Below the pieces are notes generated by a model. The model was not told the origin of the DNA. It was given only the letters and a program-made list of their open reading frames with translations, and did no database searches. DNA of 64,000 nt from Eledone cirrhosa (lineage: Eukaryota), in assembly GCA_964016885.1 (NCBI GenBank), contig OZ024747.1, positions 88,226,001 through 88,290,000 on the forward strand. Direction: 5' to 3'. Position numbers and translations under genes: made by a program. Shown piece by piece: positions 1,679 to 60,928 of the stretch (position 1 is its first letter; each line of letters opens with the position of its first letter).

Positions 1679-1805
1679 ATTATTTGTACAGATTAAAGTT
1701 TAAGCAAAGAATTGCTGCTTTCACCCTTTAACAAGATCCTCAGAAGATCTCATTAAAGGGTGAAAGCAGCAATTCTTTGCTTAAACTTTAATCTGTACAA
1801 ATAAT
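1679..1805. repeat. 53-bp perfect inverted repeat centred on a hammerhead-like core
   Basis: Arms are 1679-1731 and 1753-1805. The minus strand reads CTGAGGA-tcttgttaaagggt-GAAA-gcag caattct ttgc-TT. The helix I partner is missing. Confidence 0.85.
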
Positions 1806-1889
1806 AAATATTTGCTGTACAGGTTTTATATATACAATCCTTATCGATTCCTCTTCAGATTTTAGTCTTCATAATTATTATTATATATA

Positions 1890-2780
1890 CAGGGTGTGAA
1901 CAATATTTGTTCGCAAGATTACTTTCTATGAAAAAATAACACAGTAGTTTTATTTTTTAAGATTTATTTATCAAACTTGGGTCAGTTTGTCTTCATGACT
2001 TGTTCTTTCGATCTCACTTGATAAACCCGCCATTGGCTTTGATGATAGCCTCAAGGCGGCCTCGGAATCGGCTACAGGCCTTCGTCACTGTCCCCTGACT
2101 TAGGCTCCAATAAGCACTTGTGATCCTGGCCTTCAGATCGTCTTTCGTATTGCATCTAGATCTGTTGGTGTCTCGTTCCACTGCGCCTCAGGCAAAGAAG
2201 TCGAGGGGGTTGCAGAGGCCAGATGTCAGGTAAAGTGTGGTCGACGAAGTTCTCTGACAATCAGGCTTAGGTCTTTCAGCTGGTATTGCAGGACTCGCTG
2301 CTACATGTACGGCCTACCTGCAGCTACCTGGTTGATTCAGGGCTTTACTACCTCGCTCAGATGAGGATGTAGCCATCGGTGTTCAGCTTGAGGCCCTCAG
2401 GGAAGAAGTGAGGTGGCATGATGTCACCTTGACTGCTGACGACACTTAAGACCAATGTTGTTGCTGGAAACTTTGTCTGCATGACTCTGGGTACGTCTTT
2501 GGATGAGACAGCGAGGCACCTGTTGTTCTGGGAGTTGATCTTCTGGTCTTGGCAGAAGTTTTTCTCGTCGGAGAAAAACCACAGTATGTCTGGCTCCAGT
2601 GGGTCTTTCAACTTGTTGATCAGCTTCTTTGCGTGCTTTAGTCACTTTTCTTGCATCGCCTTTGACAGAAATTGTCCTTTCCTCATCTTGTATGAAACGT
2701 AACCTAATGAGCTTTTCATCCACGCCTTTCTCCCTTGCAATGGCACACAAAAGACGTAAAATAAGAAAATTTTAAAAAAT
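1890..2780 (-). mobile_element. Degenerate Tc1/mariner-superfamily transposon (maT/DD37D-like), one end present
   Basis: ORF 2357..2611 contains WFFSDEKNF...QNNR...KFPAT..V..VVSSQG.IMPPHFF. A decayed WP..CNPLDF lies near 2200-2230. TA-CAGGGTG terminus at 1888-1896. Multiple frameshifts. Confidence 0.82.
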
Positions 2781-5700
2781 TATATATATATATATATAAA
2801 TATATATATATATATATAAATATATATATATATATTTATATATATATTTATATATATATATATATATTTATATATATGTATATATATGTATTTATATATA
2901 TATATTTATATTTATATATATATATTTATATATATATATATATATATATTTATATATATATATATATATATATATATATCTATTTATATTTATATATATC
3001 TATATATATATTTATATATATATATATATATTTATATATATTTATATATCTATTTATATATATCTATATATATATATATATTTATATATATATTTATATT
3101 TATATATATATATATATATTTATATATATATATATTTATATATATATATATATATATTTATATATATATATATATATTTTTATATATTTATATATATATA
3201 TATATATATATATATATTTATATATATATATATATATTTATATATATATATATATATTTATATATATATATATTTATATATATATATATTTATATATATA
3301 TATATATATTTATATATATATATATATATATTTATATATATATATATTTATATTTATATATATTTATATATTTATATATATTTATATATATATATATTTA
3401 TATATTTATATATATATATATTTATATATTTATATATATTTATATATATATATATTTATATATTTATATATATATATATATATTTATATATATATATATT
3501 TATATATATATATATATATATATATATATATATATTTATATATATATATATATTTATATATATATATATATATTTATATATATATATATATTTATATATA
3601 TATATATATTTATATATATATATATTTATATATATATATATTTATATATATATATATATTTATATATATATATATTTATATATATATATATTTATATATA
3701 TATATATATTTATATATTTATATATATATATATATTTATATATATATATATATTTATATATATATATATTTATATATTTATATATATATATATATTTATA
3801 TATATATATATATTTATATATATATATATATATATATTTATATATATATATATTTATATATATATATATTTATATATATATATATATTTATATATTTATA
3901 TATATATATATATATATATATATTTATATATATATATATATTTATATATATATATATTTATATATATATATATTTTTATATATATATATATATATATATA
4001 TATATTTATATATATATATATTTATATATATATATATTTATATATATATATATATTTATATATATATATATTTATATATATATATATTTATATATATATA
4101 TATATTTATATATATATATATTTATATATATATATATTTATATATATATATATATATTTATATATATATATATATTTATATATATATATATATTTTTATA
4201 TATATATATATTTATATATATATATATTTATATATATATATATTTATATATATATATATTTATATATATATATATTTATATATATATATATATTTATATA
4301 TATATATATATTTATATATATATATATTTATATATATATATATATTTATATATATATATATATTTATATATATATATATTTATATATATATATATATTTA
4401 TATTTATATATATATATATATTTATATATATATATATTTATATATATATATATTTATATATATATATATTTATATATATTTATATATATATATATTTATA
4501 TATATATTTATATATATATATATTTATATATATATATATTTATATATATTTATATATATATATATATTATATATATATATATATATATATTTATATATAT
4601 TTATATATATATATATATTATATATATATATATTTATATATATATATATATATATATTTATATATATATTATATATATATATATTTATATATATATATAT
4701 ATATATTTATATATATATATATATATATATATATTTATATATATATTATATATATATATATTTATATATATATATATTTATATATATATATATATTATTT
4801 ATATTTATATATATATATATTTATATATATATATATATTATATATATATATATTTATATATATATATATTTATATATATATTTATATATATATATATATA
4901 TATATTTATTTATTTATATATATATATATATATTTATTTATATATATATATTTATATATATATATATATATTTATATATATATATATTTATATATATATA
5001 TATTTATATATATATATATTTATATATATATATATTTATATATATATATATATTTATATATTATATATATATATATTTATATATATATATATATATTTAT
5101 ATATATATATATTTATATATATATATATTTTTATATATATATATATATTTATATATATATATATATATATATATTTATATATATATATATATTTATATAT
5201 ATATATATTTATATATATTTATATATATATATATATTATATATATATATATTTATATATATATATATTTATATATATATATATATTTATATATATATATA
5301 TTTATATATATATATATATTTATATATATATATATTTATATATATATATATTTATATATATATATATATTTATATATATATATATTTATATATATATATA
5401 TATTTATATATATATATATTTATATATATATATATATTTATATATATATATATTTATATATATATATATATTTATATATATATATATATTTTTATATATA
5501 TATATATTTATATATATATATATATTTATATATATATATATATTTATATATATATATATATTTATATATATATATATTTATATATATATATATATATATA
5601 TTTATATATATATATATTTATATATATATATATTTATATATATATATATTTATATATATATATTTATATATATATATATTTATATATATATATATATTTA

Positions 5701-58595: not shown

Positions 58596-58679
58596 TGTGT
58601 GTGTGTATATATATATATATATATATATATATATATATATATATATATATATACACATACATATATATTATATTATATT

Positions 58680-60015
58680 ATATTATATTATATTATTTAT
58701 GTTCATACACAGACCACAAAAGCACTACTTAAGGTTTCAAGACCCAATATTGGCCATATCTCCAGAATCTAAGAGGGATCAAAATAGTGACTTAATCTTC
58801 CACAGCTTCTTATAAACCATACCATAAGCCTAACGAAAAATTGAAATATATTAATAAAGCCTCATGCCCCCCTCCCTGCAGTTGTTAAAAGCTTACTTTC
58901 TAATATTAGTTGTAGAATCTCAAAACTATCAGCAACCAGGGATCTTACTACAACCAAGCCCTCATAGATTATGGTTCAAGATTAAGTACACACCCAATCA
59001 TTCCCAACCTAACCATACTGAAAATGCTAACAGAAAAAGAAAAATTATTTGGTTTGCAGCTCCTTTCCCCTTAAAGTAAAGATTAATGTACGTAAAAAGC
59101 TTTTAGATTTGATAGATAGATATTTCAACTACAACATAGATACAGTAAAATGTTCAATTGTAGTTTTGTCAAGATATTCATATGTCCCATCTATGAGATA
59201 AAAAATTACTGCAAAGAATATATCCAACATAAATCCAAGCTGCTTGTTAGATTAAAGAGAGAGAACTGCTCCCTCCAACAGAAATGTAATATCAAATCCA
59301 TTGTGTATGAGGCAGAGATTACACATGACACTACTGAAAATCATTTTAAACAACTTTTTTACTCACATCTTCGATTCTTCAGGAATCCTGATACGAGAAC
59401 CAGTACAGCCCTTGCAATTAAAAGAGAAAGGAGTCCCACATAAGATTATTTAGAAGATACTTGAAAGATACCTTAAACCAATGGTACACAGAGATGTCAT
59501 CTCTGTTTTAATGAGAAATTTAGAACGAAATATTTAGAGGATACCTCAATCTCAAAACCCACCTGCTTTGATTTATATATTTTCTTAATATTTTTTCTTT
59601 TTCCACACTTACACAATACAGTACACCTTCTATACTATTCTACTTCATACCTTCATAACTATTACAATCTCTATATTATATACCACCAAATAATACCATA
59701 CATCTGCTATAGGTGTAACCATACATCTAACAGGTGTACGACTATTTCAAATATTACAAATTGGTGTTATTTCCCTTCATTATAATATGTATTTGTAAAC
59801 GAACAGTTTAGCATTTTACTTTTAATGGCAAGCACCTGAAGATTATGTCACAATATTGATCCCTCCTACATTCTAATGATGTGGTCAATATTGGGCCTTA
59901 AAACTCTAAGTAGCATTTTTCTTTTATGTAGGAACATAAATATATAATATGATATATCAGCTCTCTTCCTAATTGAGTATTGTTTTTCTTTTTCCTTTTT
60001 CACACCTATGGATAT
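58680..60015 (+). mobile_element. 5'-truncated PLE-A copy with inverted 5' pLTR and direct 3' pLTR
   Basis: The body from ~58811 reads YKPYHKPNEKLKYINKAS, IIWFAAPFP, CSLQQKCNIKSIVYEAEI. 58680-58806 is an inverted homologue of 59832-59955, and both contain a decayed long-helix-II HHR. Confidence 0.82.
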
Positions 60016-60758
60016 GAATATATATATATATATATATATATATATATATATATATATATATATATAATTTAAATCCCTTTCATATATCTAGTTGAGAAAC
60101 AGCTAGTATTATGTACATCCTTATGGGGTCGATAAAATAAAGTACCAGTAATGCACTGGGTAATTGCTGGCCTTGTGCCTAACGTAGAAACAATTATGTA
60201 CATACATATAGAATAACAAATGCACTCAGTTAAAGAAAGAATCAAGCCAAAATTGTCTAAAGTTCACCCATAGGTGCTTAAGGTCTTACTATATATATAT
60301 CTTGATCTGTACATTAACTAGTTACCTGCCTAAGTAAAACAATCAAATAAAACCGCATGGTGTTGTTAAACTAATGTCTTTCAGAAGGTAAATATTTCAG
60401 GATTGGTCATAATAAGTCCTGAAAACAGCAGTCAAAATAGGTTCTCTATGGCAATTCTACAAATTTAAAATTTGGAATAGTTATACTATAAACTATACTT
60501 GAAGACATTTGTTTCACCTGAACTGTCATCAAACTACTGACATCTGCCGCGCAGAATCCAATCAGCTCATATATACTTCTGTTCTGACTATAACCTTACA
60601 CAAGTTGACAAATTCCTCATGTGAAACACCTGTCGTCAAATATGGTTTGCTAAGTTGTTGTGGAACTAACTCTATACCGAACACATCCTTTGGACTGAGT
60701 GCTCTACCAACTTCGGATATAACCTCCTGGTTTTTACCACTATATGTATATATATATA

Positions 60759-60928
60759 TAGAAGTGGTTATACAACAGTTAGTTCACCATACCGAGAACA
60801 ATTGTTTCACCTTAGCGGATCCTCAGCTCGTAATGGACATGGTTATACGTCCATTACGAGTCGAGGATCCGCTAAGGTGAAACAATTGTTCTCGGTATGG
60901 TGAACTAACTGTTGTGTAACCACTTCTA
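60759..60928. repeat. ~80-bp-arm palindrome of an HHR-bearing repeat, next to a diverged direct copy
   Basis: Arms are 60759-60838 and 60849-60928. 60691-60745 is repeated at 60943-60997. Confidence 0.88.
60793..60830 (-). ncRNA. Minimal type I hammerhead ribozyme
   Basis: cgag-CTGAGGA-t cc gctaa gg t-GAAA-CAATTG-TT-ctcg. The opposite arm (60857-60894) has TCGAGGA in place of CTGAGGA. Confidence 0.78.

Follow-up and report, generated by a model that had tools for sequence, protein, structure and literature searches.

Why do DNA inversions in one genome repeatedly pivot at a hammerhead ribozyme (HHR)? The question is raised by a 64,000-nucleotide (nt) stretch of the Eledone cirrhosa genome (assembly GCA_964016885.1, contig OZ024747.1, positions 88,226,001 to 88,290,000 of the forward strand), the whole of which we call the window; it has 29% GC and many (TA)n tracts, and the host genome measures 3.0 Gb. 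An earlier note on this DNA had placed fold-back junctions at or beside the HHR. All five inverted structures are present, each at or just 5′ of an HHR motif, and family-level counts across the genome indicate that this occurs far more often than by chance. We regard it as probable that these fold-backs are twin-primed insertions of Penelope-like elements (PLEs), made on uncleaved, capped sense RNA that starts at helix I of the HHR.

Self-BLAST of the window after microsatellite masking returned the five inverted structures along with several related plain copies. The families are named by site (F1, 1679; F2, 9356; F3, 40716; F4, 60759; F5, 58680), and positions within elements are counted from C3 of the HHR core as 0, negative to the 5′ side and positive to the 3′ side. 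The two arms agree at 56/58 positions at site 1679, 238/239 at 9356, 59/59 at 40716, 77/80 at 60759 and 96/118 at 58680 (compared with 59827). A motif scan located the HHR cores, with C3 at 9023, 40776, 60826 and 1743, all on the minus strand, while the fifth core, that of F5, was read from related copies; an Rfam HH9 match at 8970-9041 falls below the gathering score (38.9 versus 52 bits).

Breakpoints cluster at the start of helix I

Exact patterns occur in the genome 13,416 and 13,261 times for F3 (two patterns), 37,901 times for F1, 7,893 for F4, 939 for F2 and 25 for F5. The locus sample, nearly all of it from one contig (C1), consisted of 175 3-kb segments from these pattern searches together with 140 10-kb and 19 roughly 1-kb segments, which were aligned from a 3′ anchor to natural full copies with (TA)n masked. 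The F3 anchor (+81 to +105) leaves every stop from there to -320 visible; with the anchors of F1 (+31) and F4 (+33), the cut sites of these two families lie at the edge of view. Breakpoint counts for F1, F4 and F5 include both arms.

Among 115 tail-anchored F3 copies, 14 continue for more than 375 nt upstream, past about -300, and 101 end. These ends are far from evenly spread: 61 of the 101 lie between -10 and +9, against 3 between -30 and -11 (binomial p 5e-15) and 9 between +29 and +48 (p 1e-10), an interval chosen to surround the cut predicted at +38, and the exact-anchor subset gives 56 of 90 in the same peak. The stop hazard is 0.064 per nt at -10 to -1, 0.003 at +10 to +29 and at most 0.001 beyond -30. 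The upstream edge is sharp at -7 to -5, which is where helix I begins, and the ends tail off downstream, as expected of trimming. Peaks are likewise found in F1 (33/104 ends at -10 to -1), F4 (81/113 at -50 to +9) and F5 (17/23 at -30 to +19). Plain truncations stop at the peak as well (11/33 in F3), and a hand count of the first 100 of the 13,416 F3 core matches yielded 16 head-to-head pairs with gaps of 4-37 nt. For the PLE families, the link between pivots and HHR is thereby borne out: their genomic copies, plotted against the cleavage site, have clustered, non-uniform breakpoints. The peaks lie at -6 in F3, at -5 in F1 and at -8 and further 5′ in F4, and the predicted cuts at +38, +40 and +29, 35-45 nt further 3′.

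Two 3′ ends and the pairing of arms

The 3′ ends fall at two fixed positions in each family: about +60 and +127 in F3, about +62 and +155 in F1, +65 and +132 in F4, and -207 and -133 in F2. A short-ended arm is paired with a long-ended one in 60/68 inversions of F3, 33/39 of F1 and 42/52 of F4 (135/159 in total). In F3 the starting points of the two kinds of arm are separated by 67 nt, yet both stop at the same place, and the stop therefore does not reflect length-dependent processivity. Neither arm contains the other in 11/60 of these pairs in F3, 18/33 in F1 and 13/42 in F4, that is 42/135 altogether, and for those pairs self-copying is therefore excluded. At the junctions, PLE arms mostly share overlaps of 1-6 nt or carry small inserts. 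In loci L041 and L219 and three F3 rows, complementarity within helix I joins a long arm beginning at the cut site to a short arm reaching -6.

An extra G precedes the edge

Patterns in which the base immediately 5′ of the edge had to be untemplated matched 2,129 times for F3 (-6), 2,293 times for F1 (-5) and 548 times for F4 (-8); the first 100 matches in genome order were tallied by hand for each family, some duplicated loci included. At the F3 edge the preceding base is G in 79, A in 10 and T in 11 (78/92 G once 8 rows retaining upstream element sequence are removed), and at the F1 edge it is G in 67, A in 22 and C in 11. For F4 there are 46 G, or 42 G, 18 A and 20 T among the 80 rows left after removal of 20 point mutants. 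Composition would lead one to expect about 17-22% G. F3 junctions in flanks of the (TA)n type show 14 G against 3 other bases, and G on both arms of one palindrome recurs in five strand pairs among the F3 rows and four among the F4 rows. As a control we used F3 +24, which has the same C|AG context: its 355 matches are mostly point mutants, 17 of 100 rows being true junctions, 8 of them with G (Fisher p 0.0014 versus -6), and junctions at -6 are about 30 times commoner than there. The sampled loci point the same way, with G at the edge in 4/8 F3 cases versus 12/81 elsewhere (p 0.03) and in 3/5 versus 6/40 for F1 (p 0.05). A-to-G editing was rejected as the source, the template base being C or T.

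The initiator consensus is YYANWYY, and the A at the edge fits it in F3, in F1 and in the older F4 variant. Copies that retain the region 5′ of the F3 edge have TATAAAT 30 nt upstream of it. Four F1 loci (L085, L193, L199 and L293) show a second edge at -8, with G before it in 4/5, possibly a second start site.

Extra G is the mark of cap copying at full-length LINE-1 (L1) insertions (PMC11702581). A peak 5′ of all helices taken together with an untemplated G fits run-off at a capped start, and does not fit a stall or a cleaved end. On these features of the DNA we infer that transcription starts at the edge, that the additional G was copied from the cap, and that the template is mainly sense RNA in uncleaved form.

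Proposed mechanism

In the mechanism that we propose, both nicked target strands would prime reverse transcriptase (RT) on the same kind of uncleaved sense RNA. RT would start at two internal sites in the RNA 5′ leader and make 60-160-nt cDNAs of a strong-stop-like kind, each of which would run off the capped 5′ end, the predicted RNA start being the first base of HHR helix I. The 3′ ends of the two cDNAs would then be joined head to head by end joining, which could involve 0-6 nt of microhomology, some trimming or short templated insertions. Arms extending beyond the edge would have been primed on the downstream (3′) copy of the pseudo-long terminal repeat (pLTR) in a longer transcript. That both arms can bear the cap signature speaks for twin priming on sense RNA that is capped and uncleaved. 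This would make PLE start sites mappable from DNA alone and would explain thousands of solo and opposite-strand hammerhead pairs in animal genomes, and it is directly testable in the existing in vitro PLE system.

More tentatively, PLEs might make retrovirus-like strong-stop DNA at the target, with the HHR as a self-decapping switch that sorts RNAs from the template pool. A dimer would prime both strands at two fixed leader sites and run to the cap; joining of the products would give mirror insertions, and a jump from the cap to another RNA end would give pLTR tandems. The HHR, placed at the first nucleotides, would then not be a tool for making template.

Several observations count against twin priming on capped RNA. 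The F4 edge is broad, from -50 to +9, and at -8 the locus test was left with no F4 arm after filtering. F3 has a small excess at the cut site, 7 ends at +30 to +39 with a hazard of 0.007 versus 0.003, and the junctions of L041 and L219, joined through helix I complementarity, belong on the same side. The extra G is seen at none of the five window junctions; the +24 control is itself G-biased (8/17, the partner arm accounting for 4), and in about 24 of the F3 rows with G the base could likewise derive from the partner arm, so that some of the bias is general or comes from partner arms. The nested pairs, 93/135, are by themselves compatible with self-copying, and the two parts of site 5 are just 81% alike and may be separate insertions.

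Competing explanations

The earlier note had suggested that RT stalls, self-primes or switches template at the ribozyme or at the cleaved RNA end. In its stalling form—arrest within the folded ribozyme or at the 5′ end left by self-cleavage, followed by a template switch—this agrees with the 7 F3 ends just mentioned, with one ORF-linked copy (ORF, open reading frame) that begins at +37 and with F2, in which 14 of about 58 arm ends lie at +20 to +60 against 1-2 at -22 to +19 (p ~0.004, for an interval chosen after the data were seen). The F2 HHR is also the one among the families that is more stable than shuffles (z -2.3), those of F1, F3, F4 and F5 being no better (z -0.3 to -0.8). The PLE peak, however, lies upstream of all helices, which RT would by then have copied, and 35-45 nt 5′ of the cut, with 61 F3 ends against 9; a stall or a 5′-OH end predicts no G; a further 100 F2 rows, read by hand, have junctions at +14 to +51 with no sharp peak at +31; and HHR mutants leave PLE insertion in vitro unchanged (PMC11167929). 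We therefore consider stalling an unlikely account of the PLEs, and the part of the suggestion that stands is a partial barrier in F2.

Self-priming, whereby one cDNA or an antisense transcript folds back to form the palindrome, was proposed in PMC3846280, where an antisense template is favoured and a sense template left open. Most pairs are nested, as it would have them, and hairpins could be nucleated by the short microhomologies at the pivots, such as TTC-A-GAA in F1 or helix I in F3. It has to contend with the 42 non-nested pairs, with short-ended copies that are also found alone with long upstream sequence, with the extra G that each arm can have of its own, and with loops of 0-2 nt, which are too tight; we hold it to be very unlikely.

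The edge could instead be a 3′ splice site, a spliced RNA or an intermediate setting the stop and a tiny first exon supplying the G. To the points against twin priming must here be added that the F3 and F1 edges, a pyrimidine tract followed by AG, resemble acceptors, and that the intron of Drosophila Penelope ends at helix I (PMC4209133), 46 + 75 nt after the Penelope start (PMC2377424). Yet no common exon sequence beyond one G appears in 300 rows (the first 100 per family), and the main F4 variant begins at ATT, without AG; splicing thus seems a highly improbable origin of the edge. That the fold-backs are read or assembly chimeras can be dismissed for practical purposes: no public-run contig covers 31 nt on each side of a window pivot, but arm lengths differ by the fixed tail, flanks are distinct, sites 1, 4 and 5 have decayed independently, and arm-to-arm joints of the same kind occur in public-run contigs from two samples (X1/X3 and X4).

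The retrozyme-type family F2

F2 is a non-coding tandem repeat with a spacing of 466 nt, one type I HHR per unit and arrays of up to 16 units, by which features we class it as a retrozyme-type repeat. Its arm ends are spread round the monomer and most pivots lie outside the interval discussed above; a barrier that halts some arms immediately 3′ of helix II, at the fold or at the cleaved end, is plausible. F2 probably undergoes priming at two sites as in the PLEs, on a tandem or circular RNA, and its pivots would be spread because such a template has no fixed start. Metazoan non-LTR retrozymes are thought to be mobilised by PLEs (PMC7229834; 10.64898/2026.07.22.740005) and are likewise non-coding tandem monomers with a type I HHR; F2 differs from them, as they are described in the accessible text, in having inverted arms and 3′ ends fixed at two points separated by 74 nt, which is a PLE footprint.

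In the window, one F2 arm occupies 8700-9355 (minus strand) and consists of a complete 466-nt monomer (8700-9165) and a further 190 nt from the next. Its type I HHR has C3 at 9023 and a cut predicted to follow 8993, and its 3′ end is at monomer -133. The inverted arm, 9356-9594 (plus strand), starts at monomer +20, the 3′ base of helix II, and has its 3′ end at -207. Next to this insertion lies an array of about 5.9 kb of the (TA)n type (2781-8700).

Comparison with known systems

Inverted 5′ PLE copies, one-sided tails and palindromes at junctions have been described before (PMC8557442, PMC3846280, PMC2377424). What we see is a known PLE structure, real and recurrent, with a probably new explanation. 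The insertion units of the endonuclease-bearing (EN+) PLEs in those papers share with ours an inverted, 5′-truncated copy with a tail at one end only, head-to-head palindromes, (TA)n targets and an HHR in the pLTR. They differ in tail length, 30-40 nt there and 65-90 nt here, and the available parts of the papers give no breakpoint distribution, cap signature or helix I start. How the tandem and inverted ends of PLEs form, and whether the template is sense or antisense, is stated there as open (PMC3846280, PMC8557442).

In the in vitro work on the Poseidon PLE PAc (PMC11167929), as we propose here, both strands are nicked and extended, two internal start sites define the tail, and uncleaved RNA is used, by a predicted dimer; neither 5′ junctions nor inversions nor the start of the RNA are covered in the sections considered. 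Twin priming of L1 also unites two primed cDNAs by end joining, with an extra G at full-length 5′ junctions (PMC11702581). The L1 arms represent different, non-overlapping parts of one RNA primed at a chance internal site, unlike the PLE arms, which overlap, have two fixed starting points and may each extend as far as the cap. A survey of minimal HHRs (PMC4209133) found most of them solo and some in opposite-strand pairs 100-700 bp apart, as here, and its accessible sections offer no mechanism. A literature search, covering the main text of openly available papers, returned no report of a cap-derived G or of twin priming in PLEs.

The PLE copies in the window

At site 1679, the F1 short arm occupies 1679-1742 (minus strand, 3′ end at about +62 from C3) and folds at core +1 within the self-complementary TTC-A-GAA; the long arm, 1739-1885 (plus strand, 3′ end at about +150), has the variant HHR core CAGAAGA at 1741-1747, which is the family core, and a predicted N17 at 1782. 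The centre had earlier been read as lying at CTGAGGA. The pivot is indeed at core +1, and CTGAGGA, on the minus strand, is a product of the junction plus one later substitution. Perfect folds at +1 in TTC-A-GAA recur in F1 (window 1739-1747; L063, L081, L088), and through them the inverted arm acquires a canonical core, CTGAAGA, despite the CAGAAGA of the family.

The F3 long arm lies at 40650-40778 (minus strand, -2 to +127; C3 40776, predicted cut after 40738) and its short arm at 40777-40835 (plus strand, +2 to +60), the two overlapping by 2 nt. Two plain 5′-truncated F3 copies start at -7: one, 13354-13489 (minus strand), begins at the helix I start and sits in (TA)n, and the other, 16641-16776 (plus strand), has C3 at 16648 and its predicted cut after 16686. 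Their near identity suggests that they probably stem from one event that was later duplicated.

The F4 short arm, 60761-60848 (minus strand, -22 to +65; C3 60826, predicted cut after 60797), is followed by the long arm, 60849-60992 (plus strand, -12 to +131). What had looked like a 10-nt loop is element sequence. For the old F5 insertion, an inverted pLTR at 58680-58806 had been said to end at the core, which it does, the arm end being corrected to 58800 (core +2): the short arm runs from 58690 to 58800 (minus strand) and abuts the interior of an ORF. That ORF belongs to a decayed, 5′-truncated PLE at 58802-60017 (plus strand), with remnants of the RT thumb and GIY-YIG nuclease and then a pLTR with a degenerate HHR (C3 59836); it has a tblastn match to residues 445-719 of the F3 ORF (26%, E 6e-13).

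Affinities of the families and their ribozymes

The families had been taken to be unrelated, which does not hold: F1, F3, F4 and F5 have related PLE ORFs, and the element at 9356 is the non-coding repeat F2. The four are PLEs of the Hydra type, F1 and F3 by their motifs and F4 and F5 by ORF similarity. Behind the HHR lie ORFs of 758 aa (F3) and 712 aa (F1), each a single frame with an RT and, at the C terminus, a GIY-YIG nuclease, as seen from the YRDD and YIG motifs. Pfam returned 0 families for either ORF; their ESM Atlas neighbours (0.95-0.99) have GIY-YIG, RVT_1 and HTH_animal on part of the members. Both ORFs show the traits of the Hydra clade: the change of DKG to DKT (SDKT), the CxCX5C linker (CNCLNKEAC or CNCRNRADC), and, next to the E and N of the nuclease, CxxC (CDLC) and CxH (CMH or CKH). 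At the position of the RWK motif of the clade both have RWR. Insertions are in (TA)n, as for Hydra-clade PLEs. The length from HHR to HHR is 3.26 kb in F1 (L307) and about 6 kb, with internal repeats, in F3 (L306), the clade generally having less than 3 kb. ORF remnants 5′ of F4 pLTRs and at window 58802-59520 align to the F3 ORF, the identity for F4 and F5 being 25-39%.

The type I HHR pattern (CUGANGA and GAAA core, three helices) is found in F2, F3, F4 and F5. F1 lacks U4 of the core (CAGAAGA), and its motif is a putative, hammerhead-like one. Helix I of F3 covaries between subfamilies (AU 15, CG 9), and 96.5% of cells in the F3 HHR alignment are paired; 0/500 shuffles reach the observed value for paired cells and 163/500 that for pair count. 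In the F1, F3 and F4 HHRs helix II has a U.U pair at its base, and the cleavage position is U in F1 and F4. The HHRs of F1, F3 and F4 may be of low activity.

Other repeats and palindromes

A further complete HHR, of another family, lies at 40330-40403 (minus strand, C3 40393); its truncation point lies in (TA)n, some 10 nt 5′ of the core, and a G stands at the junction. Palindromes lacking an HHR occur in the window at 21057-21295, 27208-27313, 30993-31213, 37379-37470, 51924-51957 and 54460-54560 and are probably remnants of DNA transposons of the miniature inverted-repeat transposable element (MITE) type. Matches to Rfam microRNA families in the window were set aside as sub-threshold noise from palindromes or (TA)n. 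A cluster of seven F1 copies at -55 was considered as a second start and rejected, all of them having one common junction. Outside the window, the F4 palindrome at L108:1300-1700 has flanks that are themselves inverted repeats. An intact 777-aa PLE ORF of another type, with a CX2-5CxxC linker, is present at L218:6581-8911 (plus strand) and in L246 and L239, 98% alike in two loci; as a source for F1-F5 it was discarded, being of a different PLE type with no tie to them.

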